A stretch of 64,000 bases of DNA from Bacillota bacterium (lineage in GTDB: Bacteria > Bacillota > Clostridia > Christensenellales > CAMQZB01), in assembly GCA_044426045.1 (NCBI GenBank), contig JAWXUX010000001.1:65816-129815 (forward strand). Direction: 5' to 3'. Positions 1,239 to 51,404 of the stretch are shown piece by piece (positions within the stretch are counted from its first letter, which is position 1; the number at the start of each line of letters is the position of its first letter). A model generated the notes under the pieces. It saw only the letters and a list, made by a program, of their open reading frames with translations. It was not told the origin of the DNA and searched no databases. Made by a program: the position numbers and the translations under genes.

Positions 1239-1467
1239 TTGCGTTGCAATTTTATTAAGTGAAAAGTGAAAAGTGAAAAGTGAAAAGTGAAAAGTGTGGT
1301 AATGCACGCGGCTTTGCCTTGTGCTTTTCGATATAATAGTAAACAATAAAAGGGACGCAACTATTCAAAATGGGAGCGTTCCTATTTTACTGCCCAAATC
1401 AAATGGGGTGCACGAGCTTGCGAGTGCCTACCACACTTTTCACTTTTCACTTTTCACTTTTCACTTT
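1239..1467 (+). repeat. Nested-hairpin intergenic element, copy 1 (GTGAAAA-arm variant)
   Basis: Left mini-hairpin ATAAAATTGC/GCAATTTTAT. GTGAAAA x5 (1259-1293) faces TTTTCAC x4 (1437-1464). Inner boxes are TGTGGTAATGCAC and CGAGTGCCTACCACA. Shares its core with the copies at 6868, 32482 and 51150. Confidence 0.9.
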
Positions 1468-6867: not shown

Positions 6868-7081
6868 TCGGGAACGCTTCGCGTTAAGTGAAAGGTGAAA
6901 GGTGAAAGGTGTGGTAATGCACTCGGTACCCTCGTGCTTTTCAATTATATTTGTAATCCATAATAGGGGCGTAACTATTCAAATAGGAGCGTCCCTATTT
7001 TACTGCCCAAATATAATGGGGTGCACGAGCAAAGCGAGTGCCTACCACACCTTTCACCTTTCACCTTTCACCTTTCACTTT
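6868..7081 (+). repeat. Nested-hairpin intergenic element, copy 2
   Basis: GGAACGCTTCGCGTT mini-hairpin. GTGAAAG x3 (6888-6908) faces CTTTCAC x4 (7051-7078). Box pair TGTGGTAATGCACTCG / CGAGTGCCTACCACA. ATTATATTTG/CAAATATAAT inner stem. Confidence 0.9.
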
Positions 7082-7161
7082 AAAAATATACCCCTCTCCC
7101 TCCGCACTCCTAACCCCCCCCATCATAAGCCCCCCCCTCCCTCTTATCACAAAAAAAGTTC

Positions 7162-9178: not shown

Positions 9179-9300
9179 GCAAAAAACAATTAAAACCAAC
9201 CAAAAACAACTAAAACCAACCAAAAACAGCATAATAGGGCGTTTATAAAAAATCGAGATTTGCGTATTTGTGTTTAGATTTTTTATAAGCACCCTAAAAT

Positions 9301-9334
9301 AAAAAACAGCGGGGAGAGAAGCCCGCTGTTTTTT
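9301..9334. terminator. Intrinsic terminator, A-run/T-run flanked (bidirectional)
   Basis: Stem CAGCGGG (9307-9313) / CCCGCTG (9322-9328), T-run 9329-9334. Lies 125 nt after the luxS stop. Confidence 0.7.
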
Positions 9335-9583
9335 GAGGATAGGAAATATGAATAATTTTATATCTATATAAGGTTCGCTGTTTCCAGCTGTTACTGTCTT
9401 TGTATGTTATATTTATACCATGCTGTTCTTAATATTTTCTTAATTTTCTAAATTATTTTTAATTTTCTAAAATAATTTTTGTTTTTCTAAATTTTTTATC
9501 TTTTTTCGACTTTCCGTCTTTGCTATGATATATTTATACCACTCATTTCTTAAATTAAACTGAAAAATTTCATTTTTTAAAAA

Positions 9584-9752
9584 CTTTAGGGCACTTCTAA
9601 AAAGTATTGACCAAAGATTGATTTCAAAAAAAGTGCGTATTTTTTGCAGGATTTCGACGTAAAACTGGACGTTTTTCTAGAAATTTTGTGAAAAATCAAG
9701 CCTTTTTTGGGAATCGAGATTTGCGTTAAGACTTTTTAGAAGTGCCCTTTAG
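9584..9752. repeat. MITE-like unit bounded by 22-bp terminal inverted repeats
   Basis: CTTTAGGGCACTTCTAAAAAGT (9584-9605) versus the reverse complement of ACTTTTTAGAAGTGCCCTTTAG (9731-9752) matches at 20/22. A third solo copy of the motif is at 9278-9298. Confidence 0.5.
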
Positions 9753-9813
9753 TATATATTTTGTAAAATTCTCAAAAACAACAAAAAAATTCACCTAAAT
9801 AACTTGTTATGAC

Positions 9814-9842
9814 TTGTATTTATATTCATAATATTGTATAAT
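9814..9842 (+). promoter_or_regulatory. Candidate sigma-A promoter for nadK operon
   Basis: TTGTAT (9814-9819), 17-nt spacer, TATAAT (9837-9842) preceded by TG. Confidence 0.4.
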
Positions 9843-9903
9843 GATAAATATAATATCAAAAAAATATCAAAAATTATCAAAAAAACTTTTGGGGAAGTGA
9901 GAA

Positions 9904-17998: not shown

Positions 17999-18574
17999 AT
18001 GCCAAATAAAGAAGAAAAAACGCAAAAAAGCCTCTCGAGTGAAGAAAATTCTGCGATTGAAGCGTTGAAAGAGGCTAAAAAAACACTTTCGCGTGAAGAA
18101 AAATTTATGCTTGAAGCGTTGAAAGAGGCAAATAAAGCGCTTGCAAAAGACGAAGTGCCAATCGGTGCCGTTGTGGTTTTTGAAAACAAAATCATCGCAA
18201 GAGGTCACAACCAAAAGGAAAAAACGCAAATTGCAACAAAGCATGCCGAAGTTATCGCGATTGAAAAAGCGTGCAAAAAAGTTGGCAGTTGGAGGCTTTG
18301 TGATTGTGAACTTTTCGTGACACTCGAACCATGCCCAATGTGTGCCTCGCTTATAACCCAATCGCGGATTGAAAACCTTTATTATGGAGCAACGGATGAA
18401 AAGGGCGGTGGTGTTTCGCTGTTCGATATTTTCAATTGTGAAAAGCTAAATCACAAAACATACGTAGAAAGTGGTGTTTTAAATAACCAATGTTCGCAGA
18501 TTTTAAAAGATTATTTCAAAATGAAACGAGAAAGGAACAGACAAAAAAAATTGCAAAAAAAAAGTATGGAATAA
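17999..18574 (+). CDS. tadA: tRNA adenosine(34) deaminase with duplicated N-terminal helix and basic tail
   Basis: HAEVIAIEKA and TLEPCPMCA zinc motifs. AGGGGG RBS before the ATG at 17999. An internal ATG at 18107 would give a canonical-length protein. Confidence 0.9.
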   Translation: MPNKEEKTQKSLSSEENSAIEALKEAKKTLSREEKFMLEALKEANKALAKDEVPIGAVVVFENKIIARGHNQKEKTQIATKHAEVIAIEKACKKVGSWRLCDCELFVTLEPCPMCASLITQSRIENLYYGATDEKGGGVSLFDIFNCEKLNHKTYVESGVLNNQCSQILKDYFKMKRERNRQKKLQKKSME

Positions 18575-19747: not shown

Positions 19748-19770
19748 AATCATATTATGATAAAAACAAA

Positions 19771-19805
19771 CGCAGAAGAAGAAATTTTTCTGCGTTTTTA
19801 TTTTT
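19771..19805 (+). terminator. Intrinsic terminator after prs
   Basis: CGCAGAA (19771-19777) / TTCTGCG (19788-19794) followed by a T-run. Confidence 0.75.
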
Positions 19806-19811
19806 CACCAT

Positions 19812-19840
19812 TTGCCAATATCTAAATTTTGGTGTATAAT
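19812..19840 (+). promoter_or_regulatory. Sigma-A promoter (TTGCCA-17-TATAAT) reading into the inverted element and pth-mfd
   Basis: -35 at 19812-19817, -10 TATAAT at 19835-19840 preceded by TG. Confidence 0.55.
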
Positions 19841-19860
19841 AGATATAATGAGGAAATGGA

Positions 19861-20126
19861 AGGTAATAGGTAAAATAGGTAATAGGTAATAGGTAATAGG
19901 TAATAGGTAATAGGTAATAGGTAATAGGTAATAATTGTGGTAGGCACTCGGCTTTGCCTCGTGCATACTATATTTGAAACTTTTTACTAAAACAGTTTAT
20001 TGCCACGTGAAGTGTTTGCTCTGATAATAAATATATAAATAATGGAAAGCACGAGCAACGCGAGTGCATTACCACAATTATTACCTATTACCTATTACCT
20101 ATTACCTTAAATCTTACCTATTACCT
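19861..20126 (-). repeat. Nested-hairpin intergenic element, copy 3 (inverted orientation, GGTAATA-arm variant)
   Basis: AGGTAAT x10 (19861-19932) faces ATTACCT x4 plus 2 degenerate units (20079-20126). The box pair is present as TGTGGTAGGCACTCG (left) and CGAGTGCATTACCACA (right), the reverse complement of the other copies. The core is divergent. Confidence 0.85.
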
Positions 20127-20166
20127 TAAATCGAAATACAAACTAGAACGCAAAAAGTAGGTATAT

Positions 20167-20802: not shown

Positions 20803-23800
20803 ATGCTCAAAAAAATACTTTCAAGTGAATATCTTGGTGGAAACTATTTCCGCCTTCAAAAAGACGTTGACGCAAACCTTTGCACCAACGTTTTTGGCGT
20901 GCCTGCATGCGCAAAACCAATGCTAGCGAGAAACCTTTCGAAAAAGGTGCTTTATATTGTGAAAGATATCCAAGAAGCAAGGGAAGTCGAACTTCAAATG
21001 TCTTGCGTTTCAAACGTGATAAACCTTCCCGAAAAACCCGAAGTTCTCCTTGAAATGAAAGCGTTTTCTGCCGAAAGCTACAATAAAAGGCTAACCGCAA
21101 TCCACCGCTTGGCAACGGAAAGCGAATATTTTTGCATCGCAACGGTTGGAAGTATTTGCCAAATTTTCCCAAGCCTTAAGAATTTTCAAAATTCGACTTT
21201 CACTCTCAAAGTTGGCGAGGATTTTGAAAATCTTTCAAAAAGATTGACACTCGCTGGCTACGCTCGCGTTGAAAGGGTGACTGGCAGTGGCGAATTTTCC
21301 CTTCGTGGCGATATTTGCGACTTTGTACTTCCAAGTGGCGAGGCTTTTCGCGTGGACTTTTTTGGCGACGAGGTAGAAAAAATCAAGACACTTGATTTGG
21401 AAGCCTATCGCTCTTCAAAACCGCGTGGCGAAATCACAATCTATCCCGCGACCGACATTTTCTTTGAGGGCGTTTCTCGCGAGGTGATGCACGCAAACTT
21501 GAAAATTTCCATTCCAAAACCAACAAATAAAGAAGCCGAAAACAAATCGGCGGAACTTTTTGATAAATATCAACTGGCGATTGAAGCGGGCAACAACGCA
21601 AAAGAAAACTCGCAAATCTTGCCACTCACAAAAACATCGTCAATTTTTCCATATCTTGCGGAAGAAACATTGATAGCCTTTTCCGATTTGCACCACCTTG
21701 AAAATTATTCCGACATTTTGCAAAAGGAACACCAAACGCGATTTGCAATCTTGAAAGAGGAATGTGAAATTTTGCTTTCAAGCGTTTCGGGACTTGTCGA
21801 TTTCACCAAATTTGTTCAAAGTGCGAAAGGCAAAAAGGTTGCGAATTTTTCAAACTTTGCAATAGCGACAAAAAACAGAATTTTCGACAAAATATATAAC
21901 CTAAAAATCACCCCAACACCGCAGTATCTTTTTTCTGAAGAAAATCTTCACACAGACATCAAAAACTGGCTTCGCGGTGGATATAATATTGTTATTTGCG
22001 GAAAGGATATGGATAATTCCAAATTCTTGCAAAGAAGACTCGCCGATAACGATATTTTTTGCGGACTTTGCGAAAACACCGATCAAACAATCGAGGGCGT
22101 GACAATCGTTCCGATTTATTATCCAAACGGCTTTTGCCTTCACGAAACGAAAGTTGTCGTGATTGGCACAAATGATGTCATAAGAAAGGAAAGGACAAAG
22201 GACACAACTCGCAAAAAACGCAATCCATTCACATCATTTGACGTTGGCGATTATGTCGTTCACGAAAATCACGGTATCGGCAGACTTGAAAAAATCGATA
22301 AAGTAACAACGGGCGCCGTGACAAAGGATTACGCAATTCTTAATTATAAAGACGGCACTGTTTATCTTCCAGTTGACCAAATGGACTTGCTTTCAAGATA
22401 TTCCGGCACCGACAAAATCCCAAACCTTTCAAGAATGGGTGGCAGGGAATTTGAAAAAGTGAAAGCGAAAGTTGCTGCTTCACTGAAAGCGATGGCAATC
22501 GACCTTCGCAAGCTTTATGAAAAACGCGATCGTACCAACGGATTTGCCTTTGAAGAAGATTCAGCATTTTTAAGCGAGTTTGAGGAATCTTTCCCATTTG
22601 AAGAAACTCGCGACCAGTTAACAGCGATTGCCGAAGTGAAAGCGGACATGCAATCAAAAAAAATCATGGACAGATTGATTTGTGGCGACGTTGGTTATGG
22701 CAAAACGGAAGTTGCATTCAGGGCTGCGTTCAAAGCGGTGGAAAACGGCAAGCAAGTTTGCTTTCTCGCCCCAACAACCATTCTATCCGAGCAACATTAT
22801 GAATCGGCAAAAGAGCGGTTCAAAGGCTTTGGAATAAGGCTTGGCTGTATCAATCGTTTCCGAACAAAACAAAAACAAAAATTGATATTGGGCGAGCTAG
22901 CCGCTCACAAAATCGATATAATTTTCGGCACCCACCGCCTTTTGTCAAAAGATATCATCTTTGCGGATTTGGGACTTTTGGTGCTTGATGAAGAACAGCG
23001 TTTTGGCGTTGAACACAAGGAAAAAATCAAAGTGATGAAATCCGATGTCGACGTTTTGTCGATGAGTGCAACCCCAATTCCAAGAACGCTTAATATGTCG
23101 CTTTCTGGCATAAGGGCGATTTCCACAATCGAAACACCGCCCAAAAAACGTTTGCCAATCCAAACTGTGGTGGCGGAAGAAACGTCGGGGCTAATAAAAG
23201 ATGCATGCACCCGCGAGCTCGCACGTGGCGGTCAAGTTTTCATTCTTTACAACAGGGTGGAAAGCATAGATACATTCGCGGTGAAAATCATGGAAATGAT
23301 GCCAGATGCAAGGGTGGTTGTGACCCACGGTCAAATGAGGCCATCATCTCTTGAAAAAGCAATAGAAACCTTTGCAAGTGGCAACGCTGAAATTTTGGTT
23401 ACAACAACAATAATAGAAAACGGTATCAACATCCCGCGTGCAAACACAATGGTGGTGATAGATGCCGATAAACTCGGTCTTTCGCAAGCCTACCAACTGA
23501 AAGGCAGGGTGGGCAGGTCTGATAAACTCGCTTATGTCTATTTCACTTATAAGGAAAACAAAGTTCTTTCGGAAAATGCCTATAAACGCCTTTCCGCGAT
23601 AACGGAATTTTCTGAATTTGGCAGTGGTTTCAAAATTGCCATGCGCGATTTGGAAATTCGCGGTGCGGGCAGTCTTCTTGGGCGCGAGCAAAGTGGGCAC
23701 ATGGAAAAAATCGGTTATGAAACGTACACTAAACTTTTGAAAGAAGCAATCGGCGAAATTGACGGCGAAACTAAGGAAGAAAAATTCAACGTGGAAGTGG

Positions 23801-24204
23801 AAACGGACATCAATTCATATATCGACAGCAACTATATCAAAAACCAAGCGGAAAGAATGGAAATTTATTACGAATTTGCCCTTATCGCAAACGCCACTGA
23901 ACTTCAAAATTCTCTTTCTAAAATCGAGGATGCCTATGGATGCGTTCCAAAGGAAACTGTGAATTTGGCAAAAATCGGATATGCAAAACAGCTTGCTTCA
24001 AAATTTGCAATCAAGAAAATCATCGGCAAAGGTGGCGTTTTGTCACTCGTGCTAACAAAAGAGTCGATGTCAAAAAAAGAGGTCGCTGATTTCATGGCTA
24101 AATATAAAGGCAGGTGCAATCTTGAAGTGGGAAGCGAGATGAAAATCGTATTCCAGAAATTCAAAGGCGATTTTTGGGACGGAGTGATAAGGATTTTGCA
24201 ATAA
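20803..24204 (+). CDS. mfd: Transcription-repair coupling factor
   Basis: 1133 aa. Central RNAP-interacting region (DYVVHENHGIG), superfamily-2 helicase motifs (GDVGYGKTEVA, DEEQRFGV) and a TRG-like C-terminal part. Confidence 0.95.
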   Translation: MLKKILSSEYLGGNYFRLQKDVDANLCTNVFGVPACAKPMLARNLSKKVLYIVKDIQEAREVELQMSCVSNVINLPEKPEVLLEMKAFSAESYNKRLTAIHRLATESEYFCIATVGSICQIFPSLKNFQNSTFTLKVGEDFENLSKRLTLAGYARVERVTGSGEFSLRGDICDFVLPSGEAFRVDFFGDEVEKIKTLDLEAYRSSKPRGEITIYPATDIFFEGVSREVMHANLKISIPKPTNKEAENKSAELFDKYQLAIEAGNNAKENSQILPLTKTSSIFPYLAEETLIAFSDLHHLENYSDILQKEHQTRFAILKEECEILLSSVSGLVDFTKFVQSAKGKKVANFSNFAIATKNRIFDKIYNLKITPTPQYLFSEENLHTDIKNWLRGGYNIVICGKDMDNSKFLQRRLADNDIFCGLCENTDQTIEGVTIVPIYYPNGFCLHETKVVVIGTNDVIRKERTKDTTRKKRNPFTSFDVGDYVVHENHGIGRLEKIDKVTTGAVTKDYAILNYKDGTVYLPVDQMDLLSRYSGTDKIPNLSRMGGREFEKVKAKVAASLKAMAIDLRKLYEKRDRTNGFAFEEDSAFLSEFEESFPFEETRDQLTAIAEVKADMQSKKIMDRLICGDVGYGKTEVAFRAAFKAVENGKQVCFLAPTTILSEQHYESAKERFKGFGIRLGCINRFRTKQKQKLILGELAAHKIDIIFGTHRLLSKDIIFADLGLLVLDEEQRFGVEHKEKIKVMKSDVDVLSMSATPIPRTLNMSLSGIRAISTIETPPKKRLPIQTVVAEETSGLIKDACTRELARGGQVFILYNRVESIDTFAVKIMEMMPDARVVVTHGQMRPSSLEKAIETFASGNAEILVTTTIIENGINIPRANTMVVIDADKLGLSQAYQLKGRVGRSDKLAYVYFTYKENKVLSENAYKRLSAITEFSEFGSGFKIAMRDLEIRGAGSLLGREQSGHMEKIGYETYTKLLKEAIGEIDGETKEEKFNVEVETDINSYIDSNYIKNQAERMEIYYEFALIANATELQNSLSKIEDAYGCVPKETVNLAKIGYAKQLASKFAIKKIIGKGGVLSLVLTKESMSKKEVADFMAKYKGRCNLEVGSEMKIVFQKFKGDFWDGVIRILQ

Positions 24205-31752: not shown

Positions 31753-32478
31753 ATGAGAAAAATTATATCAATAATATTGTGCTTGGTTCTAGTTTTGAGC
31801 ATTTCAGCTTGTTCTACAGTAAACGTTTATACAGCACCAGCTGAAACAACAGCCCCAGCACCAACAGTCGCAGCAACTGAAACGCCAACAGCAACAGTGG
31901 CACCATCTACGACAGAAACAACTTATTCATTGCCATTTGGCGACGAAGTTGAATGGGAAGTTCAATATCCAGAAAGTGCGGAAGAATCTTTCCAAGTTGC
32001 AATGGACAGCGTGATTGCAGGTTCAACAGACCAAATCGACATTTCATTCAACTATGACGAATGTTCATATCTAAGAAACTATATGGATAAATATGGTTTC
32101 AACAAAGTACTCTTTTCTCAACTTGAATATGAAGTAGTTTCAGTTTCTGAAACATCAAATGAATTCTGTTATTTGACAGTAGCATTCACAAATATCGACG
32201 TTTATAATGTTTTCCGTGAAGGCGTTGATGATTGGATAGATTTATTTGAAAATTGTGAAGATTATGGTCTTACATATGAAGAGGCATATACGCCAAAATA
32301 TATGTATGAATGTTTCATCGCACAAATTGGCAACTACACAAACGATAAAATCACATCAACTGCTCAAGTGTTGATGAAATATAACGACGACCTAGGCACA
32401 TGGCAAGTTATGATGTCAGATACAACTCTTATCGCTATCGTAGGAAGCGAAGACGCATTGCTTGAATACATTGTGTAA
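31753..32478 (+). CDS. Lipoprotein of unknown function with Thr/Ala/Pro-rich linker
   Basis: Signal peptide plus lipobox SISAC, then a TAPAPTVAATETPTATVAPSTTE linker. No recognisable catalytic motif. Confidence 0.6.
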   Translation: MRKIISIILCLVLVLSISACSTVNVYTAPAETTAPAPTVAATETPTATVAPSTTETTYSLPFGDEVEWEVQYPESAEESFQVAMDSVIAGSTDQIDISFNYDECSYLRNYMDKYGFNKVLFSQLEYEVVSVSETSNEFCYLTVAFTNIDVYNVFREGVDDWIDLFENCEDYGLTYEEAYTPKYMYECFIAQIGNYTNDKITSTAQVLMKYNDDLGTWQVMMSDTTLIAIVGSEDALLEYIV

Positions 32479-32481
32479 AAA

Positions 32482-32694
32482 TCGCGTAGCGATTTTTATA
32501 AGTGAAAGGTGAAAGGTGAAAGGTGTGGTAATGCACTCGGTGCCCTCGTGCTTTTCAATTATATTTGTAAACAATAATAGGAACGTAGCTATTCAATAGG
32601 AACGTTCCTATTTTACTAGCCAAATATAATAGGATGCACGAGCAAAGCGAGTGCCTACCACACCTTTCACCTTTCACCTTTCACCTTTCACTTT
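32482..32694 (+). repeat. Nested-hairpin intergenic element, copy 4
   Basis: Mini-hairpin AAAAATCGC/GCGATTTTT. GTGAAAG x3 (32502-32522) faces CTTTCAC x4 (32664-32691). Boxes at 32524-32539 and 32648-32662. Perfect core palindrome ATAGGAACGTTCCTAT. Confidence 0.9.
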
Positions 32695-32705
32695 TAAAAA
32701 AGCGT

Positions 32706-32803
32706 CCCACACCCAAACTTCCACCCCAACCGCCCAAACGTGCCCACCCAAACTCCCACCCCAACCGCCCAAGCGTGCCCACCCAAACTTCCCCCCTCAC
32801 CCC
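32706..32803 (+). repeat. C-rich tandem repeat (about 35-bp unit x 2.7)
   Basis: CCCAC(AC)CCAAACTTCCACCCCAACCGCCCAAACGTG / CCCACCCAAACTCCCACCCCAACCGCCCAAGCGTG / CCCACCCAAACTTCCCCCCTCACCCC. Confidence 0.8.
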
Positions 32804-32806
32804 TTT

Positions 32807-32823
32807 GGTCAAAGAAAGTCTAA
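32807..32823 (+). promoter_or_regulatory. CtsR operator (distal)
   Basis: GGTCAAAGAAAGTCTAA matches the heptad direct-repeat consensus RGTCAAANANRGTCAAA at 15/16 defined positions. Confidence 0.6.
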
Positions 32824-32880
32824 TTTTTATCAAAAACCCTAAAACCCCCCAAAAAACCTCCAAAAAACCGCAAAAAAGCC

Positions 32881-32908
32881 TTGACAATCACGAAAAAGGT
32901 GCTATAAT
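32881..32908 (+). promoter_or_regulatory. Sigma-A promoter of ctsR-clpC (TTGACA-16-TGcTATAAT)
   Basis: Perfect -35 at 32881-32886, extended -10 at 32900-32908. Confidence 0.7.
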
Positions 32909-32917
32909 ATTATCAAA

Positions 32918-32934
32918 AGTCAAAGAAAGTCTAA
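32918..32934 (+). promoter_or_regulatory. CtsR operator (proximal, overlapping transcription start region)
   Basis: AGTCAAAGAAAGTCTAA lies 10 nt after the -10, the classic autoregulatory position. Confidence 0.7.
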
Positions 32935-39848: not shown

Positions 39849-41387
39849 ATGCTTTCAAGAATAAAAACGTTTGGTCTTTTTGGAATAGAAGGCTATGAAA
39901 TCACAGTTGAAGTTAACGTTGGACTTGGCATGCCAGCTTTCAATCTTGTTGGACTTCCCGATTCTTCCGTGAAAGAATCAAAAGAACGTGTGAAAACCGC
40001 GATTGAAAACAGTGGTTTCAGATCAAAATATCAAAAAGTCACCGTGAACCTTTCCCCCGCCGATAAGAAAAAGGAGGGCACATTTTTCGACCTTCCTATC
40101 GCAGTTGGCATTTTGAGTTCAACTGGATATGTCAAAGCGGACGCAGAAACAATCTTTGTTGGCGAACTCTCCCTTGATGGCAGTATCAACGGAGTGAGGG
40201 GAATTTTGCCAATCATCATTTCGGCAAAACAACACGGCTATAAAAAATTCATCATCCCCGACGACAATGTGAACGAAGCGAGCTATATCGAAGGCATAGA
40301 TGTTTATGCCGTGAAAACGCTTAAAGGTCTTGTCGCACATCTCAATGGCGATGCCGTCATTGAAAAAGCTGTGCAAAGGGAGTTTTTGCAAGTAGTTTCC
40401 GAAAACGAATTTTCCCATGATATGTCGCAAGTGAAGGGACAAGCCGTTGCAAAAAGAGCAATGGAAATCGCAGTCAGCGGTGGTCACAACCTTCTTTTTG
40501 TCGGCGCACCAGGCATGGGCAAAACTATGCTTGCCAAATGCCTTCCATCAATCATGCCAACCATGAGGGCAGATGAAGCCCTTGAAATCACAAAAATCCA
40601 TTCGATATCAGGCACGCTAGATTCAAAAGTGGGAATCGTGACAACGCGTCCTTTCAGAACCCCTCACCACACGGCAACAACGCCCGCCCTTTGCGGTGGC
40701 GGAACAAACGCCTTGCCGGGGGAAATCAGCCTTGCAACCCACGGAGTTCTTTTTCTTGACGAACTTCCCGAATATAACCGCCAAACAATCGAATCACTGC
40801 GTCAGCCACTAGAGGACAGAGTGATATCCGTTGCAAGGGCGAACCAAAAAGCGATGTATCCCGCGAATTTTATGCTTGTTGCAAGCATGAACCCATGCCC
40901 ATGTGGCAACTTTGGCTCAAGCAAGCCGTGCAGATGCACGCAAAGCCAAATCGCGAAATATCTCGCCAAACTCTCAGGTCCACTTCTTGACAGAATTGAT
41001 ATCCAAGTTGAAGTTGACTCAATCGAATATGACGAAATCTTAAAAAGCGAAACAAGCGAATCAAGCAGTGACGTGAAAGCCCGCGTTGAAAAAGCAAGGG
41101 AAATTCAGCTTGAAAGATACGCTGGCACAAAAGAAAAAACCAACTCGGAAATTTCCGATAAAGAAATGTCAAAATTTTGCAAACTTTCGGGTGATTGCGA
41201 AGCAATACTAAAAATGGCGTTTGAAAGTTTGAACCTTTCAATGCGTGGAAGAACAAGAATAATCCGCGTTGCAAGAACCATTGCAGACCTCGACGGCTCT
41301 ACCGAAATTCAAGCACACCACATCGCCGAAGCAATCCAATATCGCACGCTCGATCGCAAATATTTTGTGAAAGGAGTGGGAAATTGA
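39849..41387 (+). CDS. comM: Mg-chelatase-like AAA+ protein YifB/ComM
   Basis: Lon-like N-domain (FGLFGIEGYEITVEV), Walker A GAPGMGKTM, Walker B VLFLDELPE, C-terminal ChlI-like region. AAGGGGG RBS before the ATG at 39849. Confidence 0.9.
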   Translation: MLSRIKTFGLFGIEGYEITVEVNVGLGMPAFNLVGLPDSSVKESKERVKTAIENSGFRSKYQKVTVNLSPADKKKEGTFFDLPIAVGILSSTGYVKADAETIFVGELSLDGSINGVRGILPIIISAKQHGYKKFIIPDDNVNEASYIEGIDVYAVKTLKGLVAHLNGDAVIEKAVQREFLQVVSENEFSHDMSQVKGQAVAKRAMEIAVSGGHNLLFVGAPGMGKTMLAKCLPSIMPTMRADEALEITKIHSISGTLDSKVGIVTTRPFRTPHHTATTPALCGGGTNALPGEISLATHGVLFLDELPEYNRQTIESLRQPLEDRVISVARANQKAMYPANFMLVASMNPCPCGNFGSSKPCRCTQSQIAKYLAKLSGPLLDRIDIQVEVDSIEYDEILKSETSESSSDVKARVEKAREIQLERYAGTKEKTNSEISDKEMSKFCKLSGDCEAILKMAFESLNLSMRGRTRIIRVARTIADLDGSTEIQAHHIAEAIQYRTLDRKYFVKGVGN

Positions 41388-44875: not shown

Positions 44876-44908
44876 AATTAAAAATTAAAAATTAAAAATT
44901 AAAAATTA
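44876..44908 (+). repeat. Tandem heptamer (AATTAAA) x about 4.7
   Basis: aattaaaaattaaaaattaaaaattaaaaatta lies between topA and trmFO. Confidence 0.8.
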
Positions 44909-44942
44909 TAGGGGCTTTGCCCTTGCAATATAAAGGAAATAA

Positions 44943-51149: not shown

Positions 51150-51366
51150 TGCGTGGAACGCTTTTTTAAAGTGAAAGGTGAAAGGTGAAAGGTGAAAGGT
51201 GTGGTAATGCACTCGCGTACCGCTCGTGCTTTTCAATTATATTTGTAACCACTTGTAGGAACGTAACTATTCAATAGGGGCGTTCCTTTTTTACTGTCCA
51301 AATATAATAGGGTGCACGAACGAAGCGAGTGCCTACCACACCTTTCACCTTTCACCTTTCACTTTT
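51150..51366 (+). repeat. Nested-hairpin intergenic element, copy 5
   Basis: TGCGTGGAACGCTTTTTT left extension. GTGAAAG x4 (51171-51198) faces CTTTCAC x3 (51342-51362). Box pair and ATTATATTTG/CAAATATAAT are present. Bracketed by AAGCGAAG direct repeats. Confidence 0.9.
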
Positions 51367-51404
51367 AAGCGAAGCTTTTCACTTAAAATTTGCTTTAAAT
51401 TCTC

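Follow-up and report, generated by a model that had tools for sequence, protein, structure and literature searches.

Architecture of the palindromic elements

The 64,000-nt stretch of Bacillota bacterium contig JAWXUX010000001.1 analysed here (GenBank assembly GCA_044426045.1, forward-strand positions 65,816 to 129,815; hereafter the window) contains five copies of an imperfect palindrome, each 190-270 bp long and made up of a core of ~138 bp between inverted arrays of heptamers (Table 1). The copies lie beside genes for an oxidoreductase and an AMP-ligase and beside prs/pth, ctsR-clpC, glyA and spoVA, with the core of copy 3 placed after the pth promoter and before the pth start codon. With one nhmmer profile of the core, a total of 25 copies was recovered over three related genomes, comprising the five in the window and others, more diverged ones among them, from related loci. 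All 25 copies were intergenic and flanked by ordinary genes, which in the metagenome-assembled genome (MAG) sequences included transporters and metabolic genes.

Each of the 50 core ends showed the same anatomy, comprising, from the outside inward, a GTGG tag, TA plus one to three bases, GCA(C/T), TC, a mini-hairpin, TC and (G/A)TGC, with a gap of 3-5 variable bases between the tag and GCA(C/T). The mini-hairpin had a stem of 2-6 bp and a 3-nt loop of TTC, TTT, GTT or TAC (GAA, AAA, AAC or GTA on the other strand). Its stems varied (GC, GCG, GCC, GGC, AGC, AC, GG, GGGC, GGAGC and others), each being complementary to its own partner half, and across 26 distinct end sequences native halves folded better than chimeric ones, with none of 2,000 permutations matching the native mean energy. 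Three groups were distinguished among the cores, namely the type of the window (family A), a type whose left end is GTGGTAAGGCATGGGCTTCGCCCTATGCA (family B) and a less tightly defined family C, to which copy 3, L005:2209, L007:7255 and L023 belong; in family B left ends the closing pair had changed from C-G to T-A, on both sides. Every window copy carried an invariant pair of core motifs, TGTGGTAATGCAC(T/G)CG and CGAGTGCCTACCACA, whilst the motifs TGTGGTAATGCACNCG and CGAGTGCCTACCACA each had five exact occurrences in the window, a match number that no shuffle reached.

The two ends of an element are REP-like units (REP, repetitive extragenic palindrome) that stand inverted, tags outside, around a spacer of ~75 bp, of which at least three families are distinguished by sequence (A, B and C). 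Since each core end combines a GTGG tag, a GCAC...GTGC stem and a covarying mini-hairpin, the element can be described as a head-to-head REP dimer, resembling the REP doublets forming hairpins (REPINs) and extended by microsatellite arms. On balance, we favour the interpretation that the window element belongs to a lineage-specific set of dispersed non-coding palindromic repeats of this REPIN type, in a Bacillota variant with microsatellite arms. Either strand of the whole element, treated as RNA or as DNA, folded into a single long hairpin with z-scores of -11 to -18, and the heptamer arrays lengthened the single-strand hairpin by 20-70 bp. The left and right mini-hairpins of one element are mismatched, so that a four-way junction breaks up the long stem and the fold is not a simple perfect hairpin.

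In all five window copies the right-arm unit was the exact reverse complement of the left-arm unit, as reported in a first-pass annotation of the window, and the unit types and left/right counts given there (5/4, 3/4, 10/4-6, 3/4 and 4/3) were reproduced when whole units were counted in register with the core and read towards it. Tandem Repeats Finder returned left and right arrays of 5.7 and 4.9 copies of the GTGAAAA type for copy 1; for GTGAAAG the corresponding values were 3.4 and 4.4 (copy 2), 3.4 and 5.0 (copy 4) and 4.4 and 4.0 (copy 5), and copy 3 had 10.1 AGGTAAT copies on the left and ~7 degenerate copies on the right. Dimers of GTGAAAR were confined within the window to the element arms (22 matches against 0.5 expected). 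With three unit types in five copies, the covariation in the window alone has a chance p of 0.05. Over 24 elements, the dominant left and right units were complementary in 22, compared with a shuffled mean of 8.75 and maximum of 18, and 0 of 200,000 shuffles reached 22 (the strain ortholog of copy 2 was left out of this test, and copy 1 and L023 represent one shared locus). Two elements, L004:3538 and L026:22507, were arm chimeras combining a left AAAAATT array with a right GAAAAGT array, so that the earlier wording that the arms always co-vary holds for the window and becomes "usually" for the wider family.

The unit types form a series of one- to two-substitution steps (AAAAATT, GAAAATT, GAAAAGT, GAAAGGT, GAATAGT and AATAGGT) in which transitional arrays exist, implying that both arms have switched together at least four times. 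Within the MAG, pairs of elements with the same arm type shared 83.3% core identity and pairs with differing arm types 83.2%; arm type is thus unrelated to core similarity, which indicates that the arms change in concert and independently of the core. Single deviant units within one arm were mostly without a mirror in the opposite arm, arguing against fine-scale compensatory evolution and for a complementarity that is restored as whole arrays, not base by base. Arm lengths, by contrast with unit types, change independently of each other: copy 2 has five left units in MAG JAWXUW where the window copy has three, the right arm counting four in either genome, which bears out the unstable arm copy number noted at first pass.

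Small modules were also nested in several arms, one of 26 nt at L003:2513, L003:6982, L004:3538, L004:7475, L007:7255 and L026:9163 and one of 27 nt at L005:3161 and L026:22507. These modules (AACAGGCTTCGCTCTGCGAGCTCGAT, GGTGTCGCTAGCGTAGCGTACGCCTGAA) are palindrome-rich, lie in set register at a distance of 7 or 14 nt from the core in different core families, and give a mosaic like that of the bacterial interspersed mosaic elements (BIMEs); only in L007:7255 and L005:3161 were they mirrored in both arms. The mirrored 26-nt module of L007:7255 was considered as a sign of arm templating and dropped, as the module occurs in 7/50 arms and one double occurrence is near chance.

Table 1. Palindromic elements of the window, their parts and a remnant candidate, in window coordinates. 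Units in the whole-element rows are read towards the core.
Feature	Position	Strand	Composition
Copy 1, whole element	1257-1467		unit GAAAAGT, left/right 5/4
Copy 1 left arm	1257..1295	+	AA + GTGAAAA x5 + GT
Copy 1 core	1296..1434	+	family A
Copy 1 left REP-like end	1296-1324	+	GTGG-TAAT-GCAC..GGCTTTGCC..GTGC
Copy 1 right REP-like end	1410-1434	+	GCACGAGCTTGCGAGTGC-CTACCAC
Copy 1 right arm	1435..1467	+	AC + TTTTCAC x4 + TTT
Copy 2, whole element	6886-7080		unit GAAAGGT, left/right 3/4
Copy 2 left arm	6886..6910	+	GTGAAAG x3
Copy 2 core	6911..7048	+	family A
Copy 2 right arm	7049..7080	+	CTTTCAC x4
Copy 3, whole element	19861-20132		unit AATAGGT, left/right ~10/4, plus 2 degenerate units
Copy 3 arm at R-type end	19861..19936	-	AGGTAAT x10 (indel in one unit) + AATT
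Copy 3 core	19937..20075	-	family C interior; inverted relative to the other window copies
Copy 3 arm at L-type end	20076..20132	-	AATT + ATTACCT x4, then degenerate TAAATCTTACCTATTACCTT
Copy 4, whole element	32500-32697		unit GAAAGGT, left/right 3/4
Copy 4 left arm	32500..32524	+	GTGAAAG x3
Copy 4 core	32525..32661	+	family A; perfect palindrome ATAGGAACGTTCCTAT close to apex
Copy 4 right arm	32662..32697	+	CTTTCAC x4 + TTTT
Copy 5, whole element	51169-51366		unit GAAAGGT, left/right 4/3
Copy 5 left arm	51169..51200	+	GTGAAAG x4
Copy 5 core	51201..51339	+	family A
Copy 5 right arm	51340..51366	+	CTTTCAC x3 + TTTT
Remnant candidate	44876..44925	+	solo AATTAAA x4.7 array, then GGGCTTTGCCC mini-hairpin + TGCAAT; no GTGG tag, no right arm

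Distribution and turnover of the family

When one genome per species was scanned with a pattern of the two ends, the family was found only in MAG JAWXUU, labelled "Bacillota bacterium"; in a third species, JAMHJH, a contig terminates within a TAGGTAA x5 array. The two-end pattern had no match in a viral contig collection, and a scan of JGI metagenomes with the left-end pattern gave five matches, all of them unrelated chance matches and four of them one unrelated sequence. BLAST against phages gave no match and BLAST against plasmids gave solo CACCTTT arrays only, with no inverted partner. On the Pseudomonas silvicola megaplasmid CP093281.1 (L029), CACCTTT x9 lies at 40607-40641 downstream of a terminator-like hairpin, and solo arrays occupy three other places; as this megaplasmid is unrelated, the same heptamer evidently makes microsatellites elsewhere without a palindromic partner. 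A tRNA and tmRNA scan found none.

Relatives of the window Mfd protein (mfd, 20803-24204) were 97, 86 and 78% identical, the next being at 47%, and the host lineage is isolated, deep, sparsely sampled, Clostridia-like and, judging by its spoVA genes, apparently spore-forming. Cores were 82-91% identical within species and also between species that share only 78% identity in Mfd, and the closest relative of the copy 5 core, L001:3583 (91% identity), came from the other species. Element density was approximately one per 12 kb both in the window and in L026, an unbiased locus of the other species. All ends were paired ~135 bp apart, and the loci examined held no solo or widely spaced ends and no longer element with the same ends. 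The solo array at 44876-44925 (Table 1), between topA and a gidA-like (GIDA-domain) gene, is probably a decayed element with a family-B-like mini-hairpin. Its array type, AATTAAA, is the dominant arm type in the other species.

Individual sites differed between strains and species. The prs-pth spacer measures 419 nt in the window and 123 nt in JAWXUW, JAWXUV and two Logan assemblies, with an identical Pth protein, and copy 3 is absent from JAWXUW, JAWXUV and the Logan contigs. Within this spacer the window has copy 3 after the promoter and before the ribosome-binding site, whereas JAWXUU has a family A copy in the opposite orientation between terminator and promoter, and JAMHJI has no element. 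At the copy 1 locus JAWXUV is identical to the window, whilst JAWXUW carries at the same site a family C element with GTGAATA x4 / TATTCAC x4 arms, the flanks being otherwise identical. A synteny search of MAG loci against the window for empty sites found none. The family appears to behave as mobile or replaceable DNA, being intergenic, present or absent according to strain, inserted at differing points and replaced at the same site; the signs of mobility are the presence and absence of copy 3, the differing insertion points in the prs-pth spacer and the replacement of copy 1, with no clean excision junction among them.

Several further observations concern these sites. The pth 5' untranslated region (window 19770-19860, compared with L008 9900-10000 and L027 9290-9395) is completely different between close strains with identical Pth. 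The empty copy 3 allele, GGTGGTGAAAAATTAAAAAGGTGAAATATA, is composed of arm-like heptamers, and in the related species AGGTAAT, the arm unit of copy 3, stands at the pth ribosome-binding site, a match that might be fortuitous or might be a footprint. Small hairpins with 3-nt loops (GTT, GTA, GGA or GAA; often GCGAAGC-like) abut one or both ends of most elements, in the window at 1235-1253, 32477-32497, 51152-51162 and 51367-51377, with many more in L001-L007 and L026. Short terminators, a tiny repeat family of their own or a feature of the target are possible identities for them; the hairpin beside copy 1 was unchanged after the replacement of the element in JAWXUW and hence belongs to the site, not to the element.

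Interpretation and rival explanations

At first pass, G opposite T at inner-helix positions, which pairs legally only if the + strand of copies 1, 2, 4 and 5 is read as RNA, had been taken as a hint of a strand-specific RNA structure. The positions named in copy 1 are real, and the perfect palindrome of copy 4 is present; the examples were nevertheless selected ones, and copy 1 also contains a G/A mismatch (GCACGCG versus CGAGTGC). Both strands folded equally well, the difference in energy between + and - strands averaging +0.7 kcal/mol over 23 copies (p = 0.8), with -2.4 for family A (p = 0.11) and +4.7, in the opposite direction, for the other families. In the RNAalifold structure of family A, two-sided change was seen in one of 42 pairs. 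Counted by cells, that alignment had 34 G·U and 8 A/C, and by column 9 and 5 (p = 0.42); the apparent G·U excess arises because the + strand served for predicting the structure and because two inherited columns account for most of the count. When pairs were instead taken from strand-neutral self-alignment, isolated helix mismatches numbered G·T 5, A/C 4 and other 9 in family A and G·T 5, A/C 1 and other 12 in families B and C. Neither a conserved internal promoter nor a proper terminator or U-tract after the hairpin was found, and Rfam gave no match in the window at the gathering threshold and, at E <= 1, only generic long-hairpin miRNA models far below threshold. A strand-specific RNA structure is thus not supported, and in our best reading the complementarity of the arms is kept at the level of DNA or of a single strand.

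A structured RNA from the + strand of copies 1, 2, 4 and 5, forming a long hairpin in the 3' untranslated region (to stabilise the mRNA, to terminate transcription or to mark a processing site) and owing its arm covariation to selected RNA pairing, is an unlikely explanation. Family A copies do lie just downstream of genes and, in 10 of the 11 unambiguous cases, are co-oriented with the flanking genes and the leading strand, but genes follow the leading strand, and a bias confounded with replication direction in this way fits single-strand DNA transposition equally well. Three window copies fold slightly better on the + strand (copy 1 by -6.4, copy 2 by -4.4 and copy 5 by -2.6 kcal/mol) and a U·G run (TTTT opposite GGGG, AGGG or AGGA) is tolerated on that strand only, although the strand energy differences were all non-significant and nine of the strand-neutral family A mismatches were not wobbles at all. 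The flanking genes are antisense to the element at copy 3 and at several copies of families B and C, and copies 1 and 4 are preceded by small hairpin-plus-T-run signals that would terminate transcription ahead of the element. The mini-hairpins, moreover, carry GAA, GTA or AAC triloops on two base pairs, and d(GCGAAGC)-type hairpins are unusually stable as DNA, not as RNA. The elements are probably co-transcribed with upstream genes and may then have effects at the RNA level, and RNA-level action is possible for known REPs (PMC3733652).

In the REPIN-like interpretation that we favour, the element would spread through a single-stranded DNA hairpin intermediate with the aid of an enzyme acting in trans, most likely a tyrosine transposase of the RAYT (REP-associated tyrosine transposase)/HUH type. 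The arms would be microsatellites slipping independently in length, and the complementarity of their units would be kept either because the single-stranded intermediate needs its hairpin or because fold-back or template switching copies one arm anew from its partner; the model requires no function at the RNA level. The arms co-vary far beyond chance, and selection on pairing, as proposed at first pass, is possible, but it might operate on single-stranded DNA or be replaced by templating between the arms. The orientation bias of family A is such as single-strand transposition would produce, and the flanks of the 25 copies showed no consistent target-site duplication (TTAA, TTA or others).

A number of points weigh against this interpretation. 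The window and ~190 kb of related loci yielded no transposase, whether a RAYT or any other; the genes beside element-dense loci were housekeeping genes only, with no transposase, and the open reading frame between two inverted copies (L003:1836-2405) had no Pfam match and, on inspection, no HUH-like features. To our knowledge, arms of heptamer arrays have not been described for REP or REPIN elements. At 82-91% identity the copies are not near-identical, and a recent burst is not indicated. The empty and occupied alleles of copy 3 differ by 30 nt replaced rather than by a simple gap, and neither an excision junction nor a clean empty site was found. The REP-like stems are short and, by standard nearest-neighbour parameters, predicted to be weak (-1 to -9 kcal/mol). 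Finally, the family A spacer with its 16-bp palindrome ATAGGAACGTTCCTAT is highly conserved across species, which could reflect a host function rather than selfish spread.

This last point speaks for an explanation in which the elements are DNA sites maintained by the host, for example cruciforms or sites for a nucleoid, topoisomerase or regulatory protein between transcription units, with arms matched by templated palindrome repair. Such sites would account for spacers that are 82-91% conserved across species 78% identical in Mfd, for a perfect palindrome typical of the operators of dimeric proteins and for the regular spacing in both species, and E. coli BIMEs bind IHF, gyrase and Pol I. Their positions, however, vary (sister strains have no element at the copy 3 site, and prs-pth is occupied at different points in two species), unrelated spacers of different core families carry the same ends, and decayed and chimeric copies exist; we consider host-maintained sites quite improbable. 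A cut-and-paste MITE (miniature inverted-repeat transposable element) moved by a DDE transposase seems rather unlikely as well. Under that explanation the conserved 27-29 bp ends (GTGGTAATGCACTCG) would be transposase-binding inverted repeats and the arrays secondary microsatellite growth, in keeping with the conserved subterminal inverted repeats and variable interiors, with the small size, intergenic position and strain polymorphism of the elements, and with a minisatellite-bearing bacterial MITE recorded in Porphyromonas gingivalis (PMC4596501). Against it, the 25 copies lack a consistent target-site duplication, the conserved part is internal and the variable part outermost, the reverse of normal DDE ends, and in the loci examined the ends are always paired, with no longer element sharing them. 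The ends are also hairpins with covarying apices, which fits recognition of structure rather than of duplex sequence.

That the palindromes or repeat counts were created by metagenome assembly is extremely improbable. Short-read (Logan) contigs do break within the arms, and repeat counts in MAGs can be mis-assembled, but real dispersed repeats also cause contig breaks, the arrays (21-70 nt) are shorter than one read, and the same architecture recurs, flanks and sequence being identical, in three species and several strains that were assembled independently. Other candidates were tried and rejected: a CIRCE/HrcA operator has only GCACTC in common with the element and the wrong spacing; HutP-type UAG-N4 repeats fit the AGGTAAT and GTGAATA arms only; mimicry of the Shine-Dalgarno and anti-Shine-Dalgarno sequences by GTGAAAG/CTTTCAC is not general over the arm types; and the context and anatomy of integron attC sites, retron msd and CRISPR do not fit.

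A bolder and improbable variant of the REPIN-like interpretation makes the arms an active part of an undescribed mobilisation cycle, in which one arm travels with the single-stranded REP dimer and the other is synthesised anew by fold-back (snap-back) or through repeated rounds of HUH cleavage and joining. If this were true, each transposition would regenerate a perfectly complementary arm and could switch the unit type in both arms at once, and the family would represent a REPIN-like Bacillota system whose microsatellite ends template themselves and diversify rapidly, and which may involve a new enzyme. REPs and REPINs are among the few repeat populations that persist in bacterial genomes and have been studied almost entirely in Proteobacteria; under the favoured interpretation the present family would carry their known range into a deep and uncultured lineage of Clostridia-like bacteria. 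With inverted microsatellites that switch type jointly, at least four times, whilst their lengths drift independently, it offers a natural experiment in concerted evolution, and could help to test whether hairpin complementarity is maintained through templated DNA synthesis or through selection acting on an intermediate that is single-stranded. In practical terms, the elements break short-read assemblies of this lineage, and offer strain-typing markers through repeat number, presence or absence and replacement.

Neighbouring features and known repeat systems

Several other features were noted in the window. C-rich, G-poor tracts lie at 7085-7150 and 32700-32880, between an element and the next promoter, and downstream of copy 4 a 35-nt unit, CACCCAAACTTCCACCCCAACCGCCCAAACGTGCC, is present in 2.5 repeats; similar C-rich stretches follow several MAG copies (L005:3161, L003:6982). 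These tracts might be Rho-loading sites or another class of repeat. Copy 4 is located just upstream of the regulatory region of ctsR-clpC, where a perfect TTGACA-16-TATAAT promoter at 32881-32908 is bracketed by heptad direct repeats resembling CtsR operators, GGTCAAAGAAAGTCTAA (32807-32823) and AGTCAAAGAAAGTCTAA (32918-32934). Elsewhere, a 54-nt tandem repeat (18022-18136; 2.2 copies, 81% match) falls inside the open reading frame 17999-18574, which encodes a protein with a dCMP/cytidine deaminase domain, and luxS is followed by an unusually long (~725 nt) AT-rich intergenic region (9180-9900) with several tandem repeats of 10-20 nt (9182-9228, 9431-9505 and 9852-9885).

Among known systems, the architecture resembles that of eukaryotic foldback (FB) transposons (Drosophila FB, plant and nematode), which have long inverted arms of short tandem repeats with unequal, unstable lengths, a variable middle and a hairpin that snaps back. 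Foldback transposons are of kilobase scale, with repeat units of 10-31 bp and target duplications, and thus differ in host, size and target duplication; the resemblance is one of architecture alone and implies no evolutionary link. With E. coli BIMEs the family shares a mosaic of inverted palindromic units and linker motifs, a variable number of modules, small nested modules and a position between transcription units, although BIMEs vary in whole REP-linker units rather than in 7-bp microsatellites, and the sequences are unrelated. Intergenic 7-nt tandem arrays of variable copy number are likewise known as the short tandemly repeated repetitive (STRR) sequences of cyanobacteria, which are heptanucleotide tandem repeats. 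In Beggiatoaceae, TAACTGA heptanucleotide repeats are documented (PMC4679880). Both are direct arrays and are not known to be described as inverted pairs around a conserved palindromic core. The P. gingivalis MITE with its minisatellite (PMC4596501) is also a small, non-autonomous bacterial repeat with a variable tandem array, but there the array is internal with longer units, whereas here the arrays are the outermost inverted arms.

The closest parallels were found in the REP dimers and REPINs mobilised by RAYTs in Pseudomonas and Enterobacteria (PMC3116915, PMC3733652). The present family differs from these in its uncultured, Clostridia-like Bacillota host, in a GTGG tag followed by a stem of only 4 bp plus a mini-hairpin, in the copy-specific inverted heptamer arrays that flank the dimer, and in that the window and ~190 kb of related loci revealed no cognate RAYT. 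Firmicutes are not among the phyla given for tagged REPs in a 2013 survey (PMC3733652), whilst Group 1 RAYTs have been reported in Clostridia (PMC5581495). REPs are stem-loops tagged by GTAG, or in one family by GTGG, and mostly form head-to-head dimers with spacers of 20-100 bp that can fold as one hairpin, some dimers being embedded in longer palindromes (PMC3733652). For REPINs, compensatory changes are common, and a single-stranded hairpin intermediate has been proposed that must be re-symmetrised (PMC3116915). The likeness extends to short, imperfect stem-loop ends with a GT(A/G)G-type tag, set inverted with the tags outside a 20-100 bp spacer so that the whole folds as one hairpin; to numerous extragenic copies without target duplication, in which hairpin-preserving changes are common; and to orientation bias and persistence across related species.

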